Shown here: one piece after another, positions 4,306-46,452 of the stretch | Layout of the letters: every line of letters starts with the position of its first letter | How positions within the stretch are numbered: position 1 is the stretch's first letter | Sequence record: NC_135729.1 | Reading direction: 5' to 3' (one strand) | DNA: 64,000 bases | DNA from: a phage | Translations under genes and position numbers: made by a program | Notes under the pieces: generated by a model | Databases searched by the model: none | What the model saw: only the letters and a program-made list of their open reading frames with translations | What the model was told of the DNA's origin: nothing

Positions 4306-4929
4306 CTAAAAGTATTCGTAGAGGTATCCATCGGGGGCTGGAATTTTTTCATGAATGTAGTAATCAACACATATTCCGGTTTCTCTTCTACAAGAATTGT
4401 GGGATACCCATTCTTTAAGAACGTTTCCATTCATGTCCAGCCTCCTTACATTTTTACACCGTCTACCGCTGGTGCTTCTATGCAACAGAATATCCTCCGT
4501 CTGCTTGTCTTTATTTTCTCCCCAGGTCGTTAAACGGATATTATCAAAAGAGTACCCTTTGAAATCATCTATCCTGTCACAAGAAGGCTTTTTCCTTTTG
4601 TCGTATCCGCTGGCTACCCACTGGTCATACAACTCTTTGTAACCGTTCAGGTATAGCCACTCCTTAAACTCTTTTTTGGTGTAAGTCGGAGGAGGGTGAC
4701 CTCTTTGCTTGCTGTTGCACTTTTGAGCCTTGTACAACACGCGTATTACACCTTTTTCTGAAGAGTCGTGGGAAAACTGGTCAGCCTCCCTGCTGGCCTT
4801 CTTACAACACTCTTTGCACTTATTAAGATGACCGTCAGACATCTTTGGGTGTTTGTAGAACTCGGAGAGGTTTTTCACCTCTCCGCACTTGATGCACCTC
4901 TTACAATGCGTGGATTCTACTTTTGCCAT
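4306..4929 (-). CDS. HNH homing endonuclease (free-standing)
   Basis: zinc-finger-like [10 protein letters not shown]...CKECCK followed by [28 protein letters not shown] (His-Me finger, DRID-type); the track ORF starts at 5016 but an internal Met ([12 protein letters not shown]) at 4929 is more plausible. Confidence 0.65.
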
Positions 4930-6172
4930 ATTGCAAACCCACTGGAGCGAAAGGTATGTCATCACAGAAGTCATACTGTGCTGGATTCTGATCCATTGGG
5001 TCATCTTCCTCATCATTTACAGGAGGAGCGTCTACAGTGTTTTGCTGTGGAGCTGCTTCCTGTTTGGCAGCCTGAGGTTCTTGATGGTCAGTTGACCCAG
5101 CACCGTTCTTGATCCAATCGTACAACGGCTCAGCCAGATTAGTCAAGACATCTTTTGCTTCTGCAGTAATTGCCGCTGCAAAATCATCAACTTTCGTTTT
5201 CTTGTCAATACGGCGACAAGCGTTCAACACCGCATTACCGACACTGGCACCTACTTCATCTTCAGTTCGGTTGGTGGCTTGAGCATACTCTTTCTTAAGC
5301 TCAATGGTGACTACGTGCAGTGTTTTAGCCACGCCCAGTGGGTCGTCTACCTTAAACCCGCGATCCAGGATGATTTGCAACGCATTGATGCTATGCCCCG
5401 TTTCCACACCGATAGGGTCGTAAGAGGATTTACGCTTGCCACCAGAGCCTTGAGTGCCGTTCTCTGCCTTAGGGGGATAGGCCTTGAAACCACTGATAAT
5501 GTTTCCGGTGTCTTTGTCAACAATGGCTGCAACACGACCACCTACCACCAGGTCTTTAAGCTGCTCATCAGTTACAACCATAGCACCTTCGCCAATCTTG
5601 TGGTCATTAACAGTAACCACGTTGCCAACAATCTGAGTCACATCACCATAGATGCGTAAAACGTCCTGATTGGCATTCTGCTGAGGTTTCTGCTTCTGGC
5701 CTTGTGATTGTGCACCTTGTTGCTGTTTTTGCTGCTGAGTCGCTGCTGGAGCCTCTCCTGCACCCAGCTTAACCATCTTAGCCAGTGAGCCCTTGTAATA
5801 GGTCTTACCGTTATGCTCGTTTGCCTTCAAAGGGATATTTACGATCCATCCTGGCGTTACGGTTTCCCACTTGTCATCAATCTTAACAGAGACAGAGTCT
5901 TGATGACCTGGTTTAAGCAGCTTATCACCCATGCTGATCCAGACTTCTTCACCACCTTGAAGCAGGTTATCAGAGGAATCCAGTTCAGAAATCAGTAAAG
6001 AGATGGTGTGGCTGGATTCAATTTTCTTACCTTGCCACACAGTGGTTTTAATACCTGTTGTAGGATCAGCACCTTTGATAGGCTTGATGCTAACACGTTT
6101 AATCATGCCGTGAGCCAGTAAAACAGTTTCACGCGGATTCATTGGGTTAGCGAATTGTTGAATAACGCTCAT
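4901..6172 (-). CDS. protein with SSB-type acidic C-terminal motif (putative ssDNA-binding or SSB-interactome protein)
   Basis: Q-rich linker ([22 protein letters not shown]) and near-C-terminal YDFCDDIPF resembling the bacterial SSB tail MDFDDDIPF, but followed by a 15-aa extension; the N-terminal fold was not recognised. Confidence 0.4.
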
Positions 6173-22075: not shown

Positions 22076-22572
22076 TTATTGCGCTCCTTGTAGTAGATAT
22101 GACTCCCGAATTGAGCTGTCCTCTGCATCTTTTTTGCCCATTTCGGTCGTACTTTGGTTGTATGGTAGTGTGTTGCTCCACCTGTTATGTCCATAGCCAT
22201 GTATGCAACATGGTTGTTATTATAGACCTTTAGAAGCATCTTTGCAAGACTTTTAGCGTGATCCCATGAATCTTTTTCTGTCACCTTAAAAGTTTTGCCG
22301 TGGTTTGTCCACGAAAACTGGTTAGGTTGGTAGACAATCTTTCTTATAGTGTCTGGGTATTTGGGGTGAGATTTCCTGTTTAGTGTGGCAAACCCTGATG
22401 CCAGCATACCCATCGTGCCATCCCCTCTAGCCTCCCTGTAGATATTGCATGCCAGAATGTTTTCCTTAGTATCTGAGGGCTTGCAAGTATGATATACTTT
22501 TTGTTTTGGTGCTGCAACAACAGGCAGCGATAAAAATGCGCTCAAAATAATAGCAAAGATCTTAATTTTCAC
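22072..22572 (-). CDS. secreted cell-wall hydrolase, SleB/Hydrolase_2 family (candidate lysin)
   Basis: signal peptide MKIKIFAIILSAFLSLPVVAAP; family signature CNIYREARGDG...ATLNRKSHPKYPDTIRKIVYQPNQFSW. Confidence 0.75.
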   Translation of the reverse strand: MKIKIFAIILSAFLSLPVVAAPKQKVYHTCKPSDTKENILACNIYREARGDGTMGMLASGFATLNRKSHPKYPDTIRKIVYQPNQFSWTNHGKTFKVTEKDSWDHAKSLAKMLLKVYNNNHVAYMAMDITGGATHYHTTKVRPKWAKKMQRTAQFGSHIYYKERNK

Positions 22573-29308: not shown

Positions 29309-29575
29309 ATGTTATTTATGGCAACAGAGGTAGTAATTAAAGCTGAACGCCCAGTTAAAAAAGCTATCAACACGTTCCCTGTGGGAACCATTGTGAGCAT
29401 GATCACAGAGTCAGGTCGTGTATCTACGCTGCTGATTGTGAAATCTGCATGTTCTTCTTGTGTGTGGGCTTACGATCTGGACAAGAAAGAACTAAAATAT
29501 TTTGTTGGGGAGCTGAAAGCAACCGAGCTCGATGCTCGTATCGAAGTATTTGGTGAAACTATGGAGGAAGAGTAA
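29309..29575 (+). CDS. hypothetical small protein (paralog family, member 1)
   Basis: FPVGTIVSMITESG... ; 4-nt ATGA-type overlap with next gene. Confidence 0.4.
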   Translation: MLFMATEVVIKAERPVKKAINTFPVGTIVSMITESGRVSTLLIVKSACSSCVWAYDLDKKELKYFVGELKATELDARIEVFGETMEEE

Positions 29576-29838
29576 TGACCACGAAAATCACTATTGCAGA
29601 ACCGAAAGCTAACACGCAACCTATCGAAAAATTTAAATGTGGTGAGGTGGTAACATTTACACCAGATAATGAAGATGCTAAGATTTTCGCCATGGTCACA
29701 GCTGAGTGGATGTGCGACAATACCACACAGGTTCTGCGTTTTGACACCTATCTTACCGATGAAATCAGGAACGACAAGATCGTGACTGGTGTTGATACTG
29801 AAATTATTTTCTACAAGAGCTTTTTAGAGGGTTTCTGA
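29575..29838 (+). CDS. hypothetical small protein (paralog family, member 2)
   Basis: FKCGEVVTFTPDNED... similar architecture to neighbours. Confidence 0.4.
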   Translation: MTTKITIAEPKANTQPIEKFKCGEVVTFTPDNEDAKIFAMVTAEWMCDNTTQVLRFDTYLTDEIRNDKIVTGVDTEIIFYKSFLEGF

Positions 29839-29839
29839 T

Positions 29840-30073
29840 ATGGCAAAAATTCGTAAATTATCCAGCAATCAGGTTGTGAAAGACTTTGAATCTGGAGAGA
29901 TTCTGTATGTTCGTGATGCAGATGACGAAGTTGAAGATCTTGTTATGTTGGTGGGGCACGCTGAGGACGGATGCATCCAAGCTGTTTTTCTTGAAACAGC
30001 TATGGTGCACTGGATAGAGCTGGACTTGAAAGCACGAAAACCTAAAGCAGAAATCCTGATTTACGAAGATTAA
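29840..30073 (+). CDS. hypothetical small protein (paralog family, member 3)
   Basis: FESGEILYVRDADDE... Confidence 0.4.
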   Translation: MAKIRKLSSNQVVKDFESGEILYVRDADDEVEDLVMLVGHAEDGCIQAVFLETAMVHWIELDLKARKPKAEILIYED

Positions 30074-40990: not shown

Positions 40991-41257
40991 TTAAGCTTTT
41001 TGCTCTTCGTTTTTAACGTGGTCAGGGTGCTGGCAACCCCACCGGAGCGAGATGAATTTGCTAATAAGCTGGGGGCAAGCTACTGAAGGCGCGTATATCC
41101 ACGCATACCATTCAGGAAGCGTATCATTATACCCCATATGAATAAACACCCCAGTCATCACCGCCATGCCTATGTTCGACCATAGCTTAGATTGGGACAC
41201 TTTCGTAGGGTCATCAGATGCCGCAACCAGTCCCCATAAAAACTGAGTTAGTTTCAT
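40991..41257 (-). CDS. small membrane protein (holin-like candidate)
   Basis: 88 aa with hydrophobic segments (FLWGLVAAS, GMAVMTGVFIHMG). Confidence 0.3.
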   Translation of the reverse strand: MKLTQFLWGLVAASDDPTKVSQSKLWSNIGMAVMTGVFIHMGYNDTLPEWYAWIYAPSVACPQLISKFISLRWGCQHPDHVKNEEQKA

Positions 41258-41268
41258 TTACCCTCTTT

Positions 41269-42315
41269 TTAAGCATAAGATATAGTGATCCATTGACCAT
41301 TTACAAGTTTTTGGATAGCACCTGTCCAGTAATCACCTTGATAAGGGTGTTTATAAGCGTAGTTACCAGAGCACATCACATGTCCAGGGTAGACTCTTGA
41401 CTCTCTATAGGTGGTTTTGAAACGGTTTGCTATCCTTACATCATCAACCCCTCTGCTGGGCATAGGGATAGTAAGGTTACCACTAACGTCTGCGCTGTTA
41501 CCATTTACCCTGCGGACAACGTTTCTTCCACCAACTGTTGCATATTGTCCCCTGACGGTTTCATCGTTACAATCAACTCTTCCACCTATTTGGGCGCTTC
41601 CACAGGATTGTTGTCCATTAACAGTGGCTCTTGGTATCGTGACCGCATTGGCATTTGCAGAGGAACTTTTTGCATCGTTGCATTCAAGATTTCCTTGGAT
41701 AGCCAGTCTTGCACGGTTGGCAGTTATAGCATTGAGCTTCATAGCCGAAAACACAGGATGCCCACCAGAAGGTTGAAATCTCCAACGGAACCCGTCTATT
41801 TGGTGAGAAGGATCATCAAGGTCTGTGCCGTCAGCACCACCGATGTTGTCCATAATCCAGAAGTCCATCGTCGTCTTGTCTGGAGTTATGGTGGTATATA
41901 TTGCCGCATTGTCTGTTGACGCAGATGCAAACTCGATTCTTTGAAGGCCTAAAGTTTGAGTCTGAGTCATTATGTCTCCAGACTTGTCAACATACAGATC
42001 GTCCATTTCTTCAGGCGAGTATACATTGAGAACTTGACGTGCAGCAGCTTTGTCTGGAACGTCTGCTAGATTATTAGTGACCCTTAAGAATCTATTATCC
42101 CATCCTGGGACAACATCTTCTGTTAAATGCTTTAACCACGCAGAAAGCATGTGAAGTTCAAAGTTAACAACTTCACATGCCACTCTTTGTGTCATATCCC
42201 AACCTTTCAATCTCTCTTCTTTTTTTGGTTGAGACTTATTCAACTCTCCCGTATTTTCAAGCACAACATCCTGATTGGCCCAAATATCAAGAGGGATAAC
42301 TGGTTTAGTCATCAC
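41269..42315 (-). CDS. tail fibre protein (paralog A)
   Basis: N-terminus PLDIWANQDVVL; C-terminus GAIQKLVNGQWITISYA; paralogous to 43327-44367. Confidence 0.55.
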   Translation of the reverse strand: MMTKPVIPLDIWANQDVVLENTGELNKSQPKKEERLKGWDMTQRVACEVVNFELHMLSAWLKHLTEDVVPGWDNRFLRVTNNLADVPDKAAARQVLNVYSPEEMDDLYVDKSGDIMTQTQTLGLQRIEFASASTDNAAIYTTITPDKTTMDFWIMDNIGGADGTDLDDPSHQIDGFRWRFQPSGGHPVFSAMKLNAITANRARLAIQGNLECNDAKSSSANANAVTIPRATVNGQQSCGSAQIGGRVDCNDETVRGQYATVGGRNVVRRVNGNSADVSGNLTIPMPSRGVDDVRIANRFKTTYRESRVYPGHVMCSGNYAYKHPYQGDYWTGAIQKLVNGQWITISYA

Positions 42316-42360
42316 GTTCTCCTGAGAAAATTCCTTAGGACTATTTTAACACTTTAGGGA

Positions 42361-42393
42361 ACAAAATGCAAGAACGGAGTCCTTTCCGTTCTG
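42361..42393 (-). terminator. rho-independent terminator
   Basis: hairpin AGAACGGA/TCCGTTCT (42371-42392) followed on the minus strand by ATTTTGTTCCC. Confidence 0.5.
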
Positions 42394-42401
42394 ACCTTTG
42401 T

Positions 42402-42716
42402 TTACCTTTTACTATGCTCTACGAGCATGTGCAAAATCTTTTGTACATCGGCTCTGATGCCGGAGACATCTGTCCTGACATCCTGCTTAAGGTCGTTAAT
42501 ATCGGCCTCTAGCTTGCTTAACCGGGTCTCTATAACGGAATCAAGTTTATCTTTTGTAACCATACTGTTTTTCACTAAGATGAGGTCTTTCTCCAGCTCA
42601 TCCAACCTCTTGGAAATGCCTTTCCATTTGGTGTGCCACTGGTTGAAAGCCCATACACAGATCGGGACAACGGTACCCATGCAGATACCGTACAATGCCG
42701 CCAAATCCAACTCCAC
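42402..42716 (-). CDS. membrane-anchored coiled-coil protein
   Basis: N-terminal TM-like LAALYGICMGTVVPICVWAF followed by a heptad-like charged segment. Confidence 0.35.
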   Translation of the reverse strand: MELDLAALYGICMGTVVPICVWAFNQWHTKWKGISKRLDELEKDLILVKNSMVTKDKLDSVIETRLSKLEADINDLKQDVRTDVSGIRADVQKILHMLVEHSKR

Positions 42717-42727
42717 AACACCTCCTC

Positions 42728-43312
42728 TTAGAGGGTAGGTCGCTCCGGGAAGAAAATGTCAGGGGCTTTAGATGTATCTATTTCAAGAAGTTTTACCCTG
42801 TACATTTTCAAATCTCTGATGTTACGTTTCTGGTCATCAGTAAGATCATATTCAAGGTCAATCATGTCTTGATAGGCACCAATTCTAGCAGTAGCCCAAG
42901 CAAGTTCTGTCTCTATGACACCCTCTGCCTGTTGAACAAAGAATTCATTGTCTGTGACAAATTCATCACCAACTAAACGCAAAGCGTCGTGGTGAAGCAT
43001 AATGTTTTCTGGTACCTCTTCTTTTTTGGCGATAACCACACGAAGACCTGGAGCAGGCCATAAGGCATCAGGTTCTTCTGTAGATGTCTTAAGAATTCCC
43101 TTCTCGTCAACAAGTAGGAAGATACACCCTGGATTTTCTTGTCGTAATGTTCGTGACTGCACATACCAATCACCATCATCATTACGTAAAAAATACCCAG
43201 TGTATGCGGTGTAATCCTCAACCTCTTGAGGGGTCAGCTCCTTGGTTTCCTTGTTGGAGTGGTATTCGCCAGATCCCGGTTGGTAAAGTTTAAACTCTTG
43301 AAGTATTTTCAT
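42728..43312 (-). CDS. tail fibre assembly chaperone (Tfa/Caudo_TAP-like)
   Basis: C-terminal signature MYRVKLLEIDTSKAPDIFFPERP (YR..L..ID.S.AP.I.FP..P). Confidence 0.6.
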   Translation of the reverse strand: MKILQEFKLYQPGSGEYHSNKETKELTPQEVEDYTAYTGYFLRNDDGDWYVQSRTLRQENPGCIFLLVDEKGILKTSTEEPDALWPAPGLRVVIAKKEEVPENIMLHHDALRLVGDEFVTDNEFFVQQAEGVIETELAWATARIGAYQDMIDLEYDLTDDQKRNIRDLKMYRVKLLEIDTSKAPDIFFPERPTL

Positions 43313-43326
43313 GCTAGTCCTCCGAT

Positions 43327-44367
43327 CTATGCATAATTAACAGTGATCCATTGACCGTTTACAAGTTTTTGTAAAGGTCCTGCCCAGTAGGTTGAACCAC
43401 GCATCTCTTTTTTGTCACCGAAATGCCAGCCTGTGACAACGTAGCCGTTGCGAATTGGAGATTCGGAAACGCCGTCAACAAGTCTTGCACCGATTCTGAT
43501 GTCTTGCACACCTGTCTGCGGGATAGTGATTGTTACATCACCGTTACCGTTAGCCGTCACTCCATTCACAGAGCGCACCACATTTCTGTTACCGACAACA
43601 CAGTGCTGACTTCTTACAACCATACTGTCACAACTTGCACCTCCATTAACATACACTGACCCAGTCGTCAACTGACTAGCCACATTACAGTTGGTGAATG
43701 TTGCTGTATTGCTGATAGTAAGGTTATTGCACCTCATGTTATCGACAACTTCAACATTGCCTACCACTTTCAACAGCGCACGATTAGCCGTGATCGCGTT
43801 AAGGTACATCAAAGTGAACTCTGGATTAATATCCGGCTGAGTTGGCTGGAATCTCCAACGAAACGCATCTACTGTAGATGTACCACCATCATCAAACGAC
43901 CCTGTATTATCACTTAACCCAAAGTCGAGAGTTGTCTTATCTGGGCCAATAGTTGTCTCTATCCAAGCCTTATCTGTCTCGGCAGCTTTAAAGTTGATAC
44001 GTTGCAACCCCAAGGGGCCTGTCATTGTATCACCTGTAACTTTTACATACCTGGCGTCTGCCTCTTCCTTAGTGATAATCCCAAGGTTTCTACGGGCAAC
44101 AGGGATGTTCAAAAGATCGCTCAAGTTATTATCACGTACCAGATAACGGCCTTCTTGAGCGGGGATCTGCTCGTCAGCAATGTATTTTGCCCAAGTTCCG
44201 AGCATATTGAAAATATAGTTAAGTTCTTCACATGAGGGCTTTTGACCAAGATCCCAACCTTTTCTCCACAAATCATCAATCGGGCGTAGCCTGTTCTGTC
44301 TGTGGGTGTTAGGCAGAACCTGATCCTCCTCTGCCCAAATCTCTAATGGAAAACTAGGTTTTGACAT
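43327..44367 (-). CDS. tail fibre protein (paralog B)
   Basis: N-terminus PLEIWAEEDQVL; tail-fibre hallmark VKVTGDTMTGPLGL; C-terminus GPLQKLVNGQWITVNYA. Confidence 0.6.
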   Translation of the reverse strand: MSKPSFPLEIWAEEDQVLPNTHRQNRLRPIDDLWRKGWDLGQKPSCEELNYIFNMLGTWAKYIADEQIPAQEGRYLVRDNNLSDLLNIPVARRNLGIITKEEADARYVKVTGDTMTGPLGLQRINFKAAETDKAWIETTIGPDKTTLDFGLSDNTGSFDDGGTSTVDAFRWRFQPTQPDINPEFTLMYLNAITANRALLKVVGNVEVVDNMRCNNLTISNTATFTNCNVASQLTTGSVYVNGGASCDSMVVRSQHCVVGNRNVVRSVNGVTANGNGDVTITIPQTGVQDIRIGARLVDGVSESPIRNGYVVTGWHFGDKKEMRGSTYWAGPLQKLVNGQWITVNYA

Positions 44368-44379
44368 TTTATCTCCTGA

Positions 44380-46452
44380 TTATGAGAAGTCTGGCGGGAC
44401 AACATCCTCTACATACCCTTTCAGAGCAACCTGCCCCATATGAAGCACGGTAGAATCTCTAGCGGTAACAGTGATGCTGTCAGACATTACTTGCGGGTAT
44501 GCCCACACATACTGTTTTACCTCAGGGTATCTATACTCTATAGTTGCCATGTTTCCGCAAATACATCTCCATAAAAATTCTTGGTAATTCCTGGTTGGGT
44601 CGTAGCCATATACCGGAGCAAGCTCTTTACTAGGAACGAACCCTGCAAGGTATTGTATTTCAGACGGTTGCCAACCTAACTTAACGATAGGTATGTTTAC
44701 AGACTCTTTTGCCTTTTCAATACCTCCCTGCATCACCCAATCGTAGCACTCGGTGCAGAAGAAATCAAGAGCACCTGCTTCCTTTTTATATTGGTCAGCA
44801 AGGTTCAGCTTTTGCGTAAGCTCGGTTTCCATGATGGTTGGGAAAAACAGCAAAGCTGTCATCTGAGCTGATGCAGCGTGTGCCTTTATTGCCTTTGAAA
44901 TAGCCGCAATACGAGCGCCAAGCTTACCACGACAAAATGCTACATACTTGTCGTAAACACCGCCAGTTTTAGGATCGTCAATAGTCCCAATATCTAATGC
45001 ATACTCACCTGTCTCATCATAAAACGCCTGCTTTGTAGGGTAATCATAAATACAAGGTCTACGAGTATCGGTATTGTACCACCACCACGGTTCACCAACC
45101 TGCATAATCACTGGCAGGTTGTTTCTCATAGCGGCTGATGCAAAATTCTTAAATACTGCAGTAAGGAAATTCATACCCTCTTCAATGGTTGGAGACAGGA
45201 GGTAGCTACAGGGTGTATACCCTGTTTTAGCGTAGTTATCGTTCCAGTCTCTTTGGGTCCATTCCAACGGGCAGGCATCGCTGAAAAGCTCAAAACTTAC
45301 AGATTGCATAACGTCGAAGTTATGTCGTTTGGCATTGTACATAAAATCATCATGCCATTTATAAGCTGCAGCGTTTAGCGCCCCTGTTCTGTTTATAGAC
45401 CATTGGGTTCCTGACCATGTGTAGTCATAATAATGACTCATACCAACATAATGGTTTATGGTTCCGGTATAGCCCAGACGCTTGATATTGTTCAACACCC
45501 TTAAAGGAGATACGTTCCACATATCGTCATATGCGGTGCAGATCCCAACGTCGTGCTCTTTAACCTGAATATTGTTAAGTTGCATCATTTTCCAGCCTGT
45601 GTCTGGCTGAAGCAGATCTAGGCGCAACTCACACTCTACATTTTCCGTTCTCGGGTCTGTGCTATTACTTACCCAGTCTTTAGGCATGAGTGGTATTAAA
45701 ATCCTTCTCACCTGCCGAGGATCAACACCCATCATGTTGTTGTTCTGGTCCATCCCGACGCAGTCCTCAAAATCAATATGAATTTCTGCAACATTCTTAT
45801 CCTCTGAGATGCTGACAGCATATTGAGCTAAAGGAACATAGATGATTGTGCCATCAACAAGGTCTACAGTCATAATCATCTTTTCAGGAGTGGAGAAGTT
45901 GCTGGCGTTGGTTATTGACATTCTGAACCAGAGCTTGGTGTTTCTCATCTCATAGTGATCATCAAACCCAATGCCGAAATGGTCATACTTGTCAACTGTT
46001 TCCCAAATACACCCAGCCATACCTCCATATGTTCTTGACACTAAACGGTTAATACAACAGTTGTTATCTGCAACAATACAGGTACTTTCAGTCTGCTGAG
46101 TAGTTGTAACCCAATACCTTGGGTGAAACATTCTCTCCTCAACAGTATCCCAAGATATCCTGTCAAGATTCTCATCTGAAACTATTGTACATTTCGCCCT
46201 TTGTGTTCCAATCATTACCCCTTGGGATTTTGATGAAAACTCCATAAAGAAGCTTCTTGGCAACCTGTTGGGTAATTTGTCAACAATTTCCACGGGGATC
46301 TCAATACTTGTTGCCCCAACTGGGATAGTTATATCGCCCTCAACATGATTATAATCCCTACCAGGAACGGCAGTATCCTGAACTGTTCGGTAATGAAACT
46401 GTGCAGCCATTGTAGAGTAATCACGGTAAGGTTTAAAAACAGCTGTTGCCAT
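44380..46452 (-). CDS. structural (baseplate/tail-associated) protein
   Basis: 690 aa; N-terminal Calx-beta-like segment (AVPGRDYNHVEGDITIPVGATSIEIPVEIVD); no catalytic motif recognised. Confidence 0.35.
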   Translation of the reverse strand: MATAVFKPYRDYSTMAAQFHYRTVQDTAVPGRDYNHVEGDITIPVGATSIEIPVEIVDKLPNRLPRSFFMEFSSKSQGVMIGTQRAKCTIVSDENLDRISWDTVEERMFHPRYWVTTTQQTESTCIVADNNCCINRLVSRTYGGMAGCIWETVDKYDHFGIGFDDHYEMRNTKLWFRMSITNASNFSTPEKMIMTVDLVDGTIIYVPLAQYAVSISEDKNVAEIHIDFEDCVGMDQNNNMMGVDPRQVRRILIPLMPKDWVSNSTDPRTENVECELRLDLLQPDTGWKMMQLNNIQVKEHDVGICTAYDDMWNVSPLRVLNNIKRLGYTGTINHYVGMSHYYDYTWSGTQWSINRTGALNAAAYKWHDDFMYNAKRHNFDVMQSVSFELFSDACPLEWTQRDWNDNYAKTGYTPCSYLLSPTIEEGMNFLTAVFKNFASAAMRNNLPVIMQVGEPWWWYNTDTRRPCIYDYPTKQAFYDETGEYALDIGTIDDPKTGGVYDKYVAFCRGKLGARIAAISKAIKAHAASAQMTALLFFPTIMETELTQKLNLADQYKKEAGALDFFCTECYDWVMQGGIEKAKESVNIPIVKLGWQPSEIQYLAGFVPSKELAPVYGYDPTRNYQEFLWRCICGNMATIEYRYPEVKQYVWAYPQVMSDSITVTARDSTVLHMGQVALKGYVEDVVPPDFS

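Follow-up and report, generated by a model that had tools for sequence, protein, structure and literature searches.

What are genes for small membrane proteins doing inside the tail fiber cluster of a phage? The question is raised by sequence record NC_135729.1, of which a stretch of 64,000 nucleotides (nt; referred to here as the window) was analyzed. Between positions 40991 and 44367 of the window, five open reading frames (ORFs), all on the minus strand, encode two related short tail fibers (fibers A and B), a Tfa-type chaperone, and two small membrane proteins (gp31 and gp29). An earlier note made from the sequence alone had described a duplicated fiber cassette here, and the ORF list bore out all five genes and their positions. 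The note had also called small membrane proteins within a fiber cluster unusual, and had guessed that they might be holin-like lysis proteins or superinfection-exclusion factors. Our new result is that gp29 is a strong and testable holin candidate, filling a gap stated in several genome papers. The combined statement that the locus couples two Mu-type short fibers and their chaperone with a lysis protein of the holin type (gp29) and a lysis accessory (gp31) is, in our judgment, somewhat better than evenly balanced.

We assigned the source phage to Vequintavirus, i.e., to the rV5-like coliphages, on the basis of its sequence. Approximately 3.5 kb around the locus were 99% identical to the published Vequintavirus genomes rV5_ev146, Mangalyan, and CarlMeissner/Bas48, and at least 80% of this query was covered by 112 phage records. 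Sixteen GenBank records named "Campylobacter phage" (MG0656xx; host, C. jejuni) also matched the query at >90% identity (approximately 99% for the eight listed), and their host labels look doubtful. The rV5 gene numbers used here were assigned by aligning the minus-strand ORFs with the rV5 record.

The gene for gp29 (40991-41257, minus strand) encodes 88 amino acids (aa). The ORF is real, but the description of its product as a membrane protein stood only in part: the protein is moderately hydrophobic (best KD19 hydropathy value, 1.05 at residues 25 to 43; weaker segment, residues 49 to 69), so its membrane insertion is only a prediction. The AlphaFold2 (AF2) model was helical (residues 22 to 43 and 47 to 72) at low confidence (predicted local distance difference test [pLDDT], 60). 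Judged by its hydropathy, this low-confidence model, and the C-terminal tails of its family, gp29 has the holin trait of a small transmembrane (TM) protein with a charged C terminus. It had no match in Pfam or NCBIfam and was a full-length member of phrog_1322 (E value, 2.7e-32), a family labeled "membrane protein" and filed by PHROG in the category "moron/host takeover."

A profile built from rV5-type gp29 sequences only was searched against 1.8 billion proteins (E value, ≤1e-3) and retrieved 68 clusters; all 65 that were tested (65/65) belonged to phrog_1322. Family members are 70 to 160 aa long. A conserved motif, SHTKxW(S/A)N(I/V)(G/A), enters helix 1 and is followed by a short loop; helix 2 terminates in SKF(L/I)S(L)(K/R)(Y/W)G, and the tail that follows is hydrophilic and charged and varies greatly in length. 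Approximately 12 of the 65 members carry an extra N-terminal TM helix. The size, the two weakly hydrophobic helices, and the variable charged C-terminal tail are typical of holins. DUF2644 was weakly matched by 5 of the 65 relatives (best E value, 2e-4) and was not reached by gp29 itself; neither DUF2644 nor phrog_1322, to which gp29 belongs, has an assigned function. One distant member (P0108) found PVP-SE1 gp42 and its relatives in a tblastn search, and hhalign comparisons of gp29 with Mu gp18, gp19, gp20, gp23, gp24, and gp25 yielded nothing.

The evidence for a role in lysis comes from the genes that surround the distant homologues. We fetched 80 IMG/VR loci encoding distant phrog_1322 members and called the flanking ORFs by a simple procedure; the rV5-only profile recognized 69 of the 74 homologue ORFs. 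Peptidoglycan hydrolases accounted for 15 of the 32 distinct upstream neighbors and belonged to five Pfam families (i.e., Peptidase_M15_4/VanY, Amidase_2, Peptidase_M15_3, Phage_lysozyme, and Glyco_hydro_19). Among the 30 distinct downstream neighbors, Rz-like spanin PHROGs dominated the matches (phrog_1403 matched 9), and a dozen spanin families were seen in all. By a conservative local count, an endolysin-like gene lay within three ORFs of the family gene in 20 unrelated loci, and in 19 of these it was one or two ORFs upstream; all 20 were among the 31 loci in which the family ORF was no longer than 100 aa. Two named Mu-like phages have the same kind of cassette. Ralstonia phage RS138 encodes a late activator, an endolysin, ORF27, and an Rz-like spanin in this order, and Pseudomonas phage Bise encodes Mor, an M15 peptidase, an 80-aa ORF, and a spanin; the small ORFs of both are phrog_1322 members (E values, 9e-23 and 1e-19, respectively). 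The endolysins of the IMG/VR, RS138, and Bise cassettes carry no N-terminal TM or signal-anchor-release (SAR) segment. The homology of gp29 to proteins of lysis cassettes is thereby established.

The holin has not been identified in V5-like phages (PMC6658697, PMC7344957), and the guess made by Kropinski was gp129 (PMC3606486). The rV5 endolysin, gp89, starts with MKLDKNVQRKAFLDMIAYSEGTD and has neither a TM segment nor an export signal; as a soluble enzyme, it therefore needs a holin. The rV5 spanin genes adjoin the terminase gene (ORF67, i-spanin; ORF66, o-spanin with a lipobox), in agreement with previous reports (PMC7344957, PMC6658697). Directly after the endolysin gene, rV5 ORF90 (22110-22316 of locus L013) encodes a 68-aa protein of phrog_4641 (function unknown) with a signal-peptide-like N terminus. 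In the CRISPRi-ART paper, EdH4 was used for single genes only. Among the small membrane proteins of the rV5-like phage, gp29 is the only one with homologues in lysis cassettes. Because these homologues lie between endolysin and spanin genes, the rV5 endolysin is not exported, the spanins are encoded elsewhere, and no holin has been identified, gp29 is most likely a holin or a close partner of one. That it is a lysis protein appears likely from these gene contexts; that it forms the membrane hole itself is about an even call.

If gp29 acts in this way, it would be made late, from the same unit as fiber B (i.e., from the putative promoter P030 described below), and would adopt an N-in/C-in topology in the inner membrane, with its helices forming a hairpin and a charged tail at the C terminus. 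Permeabilization of the membrane by gp29 at a set time would then give the soluble gp89 access to the wall, and the spanins gp66/67 would complete lysis afterwards. Class II holins of the phage 21 S68 type are likewise small, weakly hydrophobic, and predicted to form N-in/C-in two-helix hairpins with charged C-terminal tails. Unlike them, gp29 has no curated holin family match and no dual-start motif, and its hole formation is a prediction; moreover, the S68 pinholins serve SAR endolysins, whereas the presumed partner of gp29 is soluble. The location of the gene has a parallel in T4, in which the holin gene t lies just after fiber genes 37 and 38; like the gp29 gene, it is part of an operon of late structural genes that is well separated from the endolysin gene.

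The holin sets lysis time and burst size, and it has been missing from the rV5-like phages (PMC6658697, PMC7344957). Few coliphages are isolated more often than these, which also serve in cocktails for therapy and biocontrol. With gp29 as a candidate, lysis timing becomes accessible to study and engineering in this group. If the assignment is correct, it would also provide a function for the unannotated phrog_1322/DUF2644 proteins that recur in Mu-like lysis cassettes, including those of Mu-like phages whose soluble endolysins leave the role of DUF2730 open (PMC9239132).

Several observations weigh against gp29 as the holin. No curated holin family matched it in Pfam, NCBIfam, or the holin-labeled PHROGs, its helices are only moderately hydrophobic, and its AF2 model is poor. 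In the window, approximately 50 kb separate its gene from the endolysin gene, and no lysis cassette surrounds it. Among the short-ORF loci, about one in three lacked a recognized endolysin gene adjoining the family gene, and our ORF calling in the IMG/VR loci was crude. In at least one cassette, a canonical holin PHROG is encoded two genes after the phrog_1322 gene; because of this, the family could comprise antiholins or holin partners. On such a reading, gp29 would be a lysis regulator (i.e., an antiholin, a pinholin-type depolarizer, or a holin partner), and the true holin would be another small membrane protein, e.g., gp129 or ORF90. The weakly hydrophobic, SAR-like helices of the gp29 family would suit a regulator, as would that cassette. 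The candidates for the true holin each have something in their favor, as gp129 combines two strongly hydrophobic TM domains with a basic tail and ORF90 directly follows the endolysin. However, gp129 occurs only in Vequintavirus sensu stricto, where no lysis genes surround it, ORF90 resembles a signal-peptide protein, and RS138 and Bise encode no other TM protein between the endolysin and the spanin, with both endolysins being soluble. We therefore regard a purely regulatory gp29 as unlikely.

Far less probable is the other guess of the earlier note, namely, that the small membrane proteins exclude superinfecting phages or block injection, as T5 Llp, T1/phi80 Cor, or T4 Imm/Sp do. Exclusion genes located beside receptor-binding genes have precedent, T4 Imm is similar to gp29 in size and number of TM segments, and phrog_1322 is filed under "moron/host takeover." Against this, gp29 and gp31 lack a lipobox and match no exclusion family in PHROG, Pfam, or NCBIfam, and their genes lie in late units with the fibers, too late to exclude. 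Both proteins are conserved while fiber tips and receptors change completely, and the homologues in Mu-like phages are found in lysis cassettes and not beside fibers. Furthermore, the terminal receptor is the lipopolysaccharide (LPS) core, which an inner-membrane protein could not mask (PMC8594841). We consider superinfection exclusion highly improbable; for gp29, the holin-like half of the guess was upheld by the gene context of its homologues.

The second small membrane protein, gp31 (42402-42716, minus strand; 104 aa), had been described as a TM and coiled-coil protein, and correctly so. It has one hydrophobic segment (residues ~3 to 25; KD19 value, up to 1.9), a confident AF2 model of a two-helix hairpin (residues 5 to 50 and 55 to 103; pLDDT, 88), and a heptad pattern in which 71% of the a/d positions in one phase are L, I, V, M, or F (35% overall). 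It belongs to phrog_5345 (function unknown); no match was found in Pfam or NCBIfam, and a Foldseek search of viral structures with its model produced no match with an E value of <0.3. Most of its homologues have an acidic N terminus and basic residues after the helix, from which the positive-inside rule alone predicts an N-out/C-in topology.

This architecture recalls the Mu gp25 "releasin" (DUF2730), a protein of approximately 100 aa whose N-terminal TM segment precedes a cytoplasmic helical domain and whose topology is predicted to be N-out/C-in (PMC9239132). Likewise, gp31 is approximately 100 aa long and has an N-terminal TM segment with basic residues after the helix, with a helix break near residue 52; it differs in not being encoded within five genes of an endolysin and in coming from a phage that is not transposable. 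A phrog_1322 gene and a gene for a protein of releasin architecture co-occur in several Mu-like cassettes, where the latter follows the spanins, and in one of these (locus L062) the protein matched DUF2730 (E value, 8e-8). In the Mu-like phrog_1322 cassettes, the protein encoded just after the spanins is 92 to 119 aa long, has an N-terminal TM segment and a coiled coil, and carries the motif LPxxY(V/Q)xREDxIR (L095, 3234-3512; L047, 4677-4985; L048, 5033-5380; L055, 4905-5258; L058, 4824-5183; L086, 4449-4769). The corresponding 92-aa ORF of Bise is a member of phrog_462, whose label "lipoprotein" looks like a misnomer.

Homology between gp31 and the Mu releasin was looked for and not demonstrated. 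An initial hhalign comparison appeared significant (E value, 1.3e-3; 0 of 100 column shuffles) and failed against heptad-preserving shuffles and unrelated proteins. The raw-alignment gp31-DUF2730 score of 23.7 fell to 17.6 without gappy columns (heptad-block shuffles, 15.9 ± 1.4), and the unrelated TM and coiled-coil proteins YhcB (20.8) and AtpF (17.7) scored as high or higher. The similarity of gp31 to the Bise-type proteins (probability, 75%; E value, 2.6e-5) was reached by 4 of 60 shuffles, and none of 10 gp31 family members matched the DUF2730 Pfam model at E values of ≤10. These comparisons count against the part of our reading that concerns gp31. An i-spanin identity for gp31 was discarded, as there is no lipobox ORF nearby and the rV5 spanins are ORF66/67. 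The most likely role of gp31 is that of a releasin-like lysis accessory, which we propose tentatively and rate at somewhat below an even chance; as a membrane-tethered coiled coil, it would probably modulate the lysis step as the DUF2730 "releasin"-type proteins do in Mu-like phages.

The main alternative for gp31, and perhaps for gp29, is that of a membrane-anchored assembly factor for the short fibers or the baseplate, tethering Tfa-assisted folding to the inner membrane. The gp31 homologues stay directly after Tfa even where gp29 has moved (in phAPEC8), PVP-SE1 shows tight coupling between start and stop codons, and gp31 is called "tail fiber" or "structural protein" in some records. These labels, however, trace to annotation transfer and not to data, and the linkage persists with unrelated fiber bodies of 232 to 551 aa. 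No Tfa system is known to require a membrane partner. Neither gp31 nor gp29 was detected by mass spectrometry in rV5 virions, and their counterparts were not detected in CB7 virions; this absence is weak evidence because only 19 proteins were listed for rV5. We consider an assembly function improbable, and a lysis accessory remains our preferred role for gp31.

Contrary to the earlier impression that small membrane proteins are out of place in a fiber cluster, these genes are conserved across Vequintavirinae and their relatives. Homologues of gp31 were found in 223 phage records and those of gp29 in 368, spanning Vequintavirinae, Phapecoctavirus, and Aeromonas phages of 115 to 155 kb. Conserved synteny was established for five phages (PVP-SE1, KNP2, PBES 02, W70, and Aeromonas phage 2L372D), in which the genes for a baseplate wedge protein, a baseplate protein, one short fiber, and Tfa are followed by a gp31-like gene, a gene for a protein of 152 to 157 aa with four TM segments (the 4-TM protein), a gp29-like gene, and the next fiber gene. 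The short fiber of such single-fiber relatives ranges from 232 to 551 aa. A gp31 homologue directly follows Tfa in Seunavirus, Mydovirus, Certrevirus, Phapecoctavirus, and one Aeromonas phage. The phAPEC8 order differs in that the gp29-like gene is found upstream of the wedge gene, while the gp31-like gene is still located after Tfa.

The 4-TM gene is located between the gp31-like and gp29-like genes (L006, 4312-4785; L007, 4312-4785; L008, 4336-4794; L011, 4330-4788; L010, ~4480-4950); its product had no match in Pfam or NCBIfam, and in Aeromonas phage 2L372D it is unannotated. Neither the window nor any record of Vequintavirus sensu stricto contains the gene, and no relic of it was found in the window or in 85 kb of rV5. 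Because of this absence, fiber B occupies the exact slot of the 4-TM gene, and the only new point concerning the fibers is that the second one replaced a membrane gene. A broader scenario, which we put forward as speculative and rather unlikely, is that the three small membrane genes after Tfa (encoding the TM and coiled-coil, 4-TM, and phrog_1322 proteins) constitute an old lysis-timing module in baseplate/fiber operons. In this scenario, the first product would be a releasin-like tether, the second a P2 LysA-like antiholin, and the third a member of a new holin family shared with soluble-endolysin Mu-like phages, and Vequintavirus would have swapped the 4-TM regulator for a second short fiber with its own late promoter. 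Such an exchange would have altered adsorption and the control of lysis at the same time.

The junction between gp31 and fiber B is a gap of 86 nt (42316-42401, minus strand) that contains a hairpin, AGAACGGAAAGGACTCCGTTCT, followed by a T4-late-like promoter motif, TGTTAAAATA. This motif is the putative late promoter P030 listed in Table S4 of Kropinski (PMC3606486). Given the hairpin and the motif, the locus reads as two predicted late units: a first one ending with gp34, fiber A, Tfa, and gp31, and a second one in which fiber B starts its own unit and is followed by gp29 and gp28.

The fibers themselves and their chaperone are already published biology, and the presence of two Mu-type short tail fibers with a chaperone is close to certain. 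Fiber A (rV5 gp33; 43327-44367, minus strand) is 346 aa long and is annotated "short tail fiber protein" in Bas48. Fiber B (rV5 gp30; 41269-42315, minus strand) is 348 aa long from a GTG start codon and 347 aa long from the ATG used in GenBank. The two are paralogues, as had been proposed (BLASTP identity, 43%; E value, 1e-94), and both are full-length members of phrog_4465 (E values, 1e-171 and 3e-165 for fibers A and B, respectively). Kropinski in 2013 reported gp30 and gp33 as similar fibers with 42.3% identity, and rV5 virions contain gp30, gp32, and gp33 by mass spectrometry (PMC3606486). The chaperone (rV5 gp32; 42728-43312, minus strand; 194 aa) was verified as Tfa type by its match to the Pfam family Caudo_TAP (PF02413; E value, 9e-12; 45.7 bits, with a cutoff of 22.1) and also belongs to phrog_136 (E value, 2e-36). 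A Caudo_TAP gene lies immediately downstream of fiber A only and not of fiber B.

The fibers had been thought to share their ends and to differ in a central receptor-binding part. Only their last ~15 residues are nearly identical, however, and the divergence is not limited to the middle: in 30-residue windows, identity ranged from 27 to 67% over the whole length, with a peak at approximately residues 106 to 150 and troughs at approximately 46 to 90, 211 to 255, and 301 to 345. One of the most divergent stretches lies at approximately residues 300 to 330, immediately ahead of the conserved end. The N-terminal part of each fiber (fiber A residues 1 to 108, E value, 1.4e-19; ~100 residues of fiber B, E value, 1.9e-8) matched the phiTE short tail fiber (9cuy), the N terminus of which binds the baseplate wedge (PMC11972413). 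Residues 286 to 343 of fiber A matched the tip of the Mu tail fiber S (5yvq_A, 440-501; E value, 1.7e-6); fiber B had no direct 5yvq match, aligns with fiber A in this region, and shares the last ~15 residues. Because of the match to the Mu S tip, the receptor-binding part is placed at the C terminus and not in the center, with baseplate-binding homology at the N terminus.

On this reading, the N-terminal domain shared by both fibers plugs into the baseplate wedge, both fibers end in a Mu S-like tip that would depend on the Tfa encoded after fiber A, and both are found in virions together with the chaperone. The LPS outer core serves as the terminal receptor (PMC8594841), and because the tips differ most at approximately residues 300 to 330, the two fibers probably read two variants of the LPS core. 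The multivalent adsorption apparatus proposed for this phage is indeed already present in the literature on rV5-like phages (PMC8594841, S5D Fig; PMC3606486; PMC12143355): Maffei in 2021 compared the fiber pair with the single locus of phi92-like phages and with Mu S/U (PMC8594841), and cryo-electron microscopy density for this class of short fiber is available from the RBPseg study (PMC12143355).

The similarity to Mu S/U comprises a C-terminal tip homologous to that of Mu S, a Caudo_TAP chaperone gene in the position directly downstream, and the presence of the chaperone in virions (of both Mu and rV5); the wedge-binding end of the phiTE short fiber is homologous to the N-terminal domain of the rV5-like fibers. 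In contrast to Mu, the rV5-like fiber locus has no invertible segment. It also differs from Mu S/U, phi92, Bas48-59, and phiTE in having two paralogues of 43% identity with one chaperone gene only and in that the second paralogue, which has taken the place of a 4-TM membrane gene, is preceded by a putative late promoter of its own.

Two other regions of the window were noted. On the plus strand at 29309-30073, three consecutive small ORFs (88, 87, and 77 aa) resemble a tandem array; the mutual similarity of these ORFs (~87 aa each) was not significant (best E value, 0.015). Next to fiber A, a 690-aa protein (rV5 gp34; 44380-46452, minus strand) contains Calx-beta, NCTSP_N, and NCTSP TIM-barrel domains (Pfam E value, 4e-80) that resemble the N4 gp65 sheath protein, and a 2026 preprint assigned the gp34 fiber to the NGR polysaccharide receptor.

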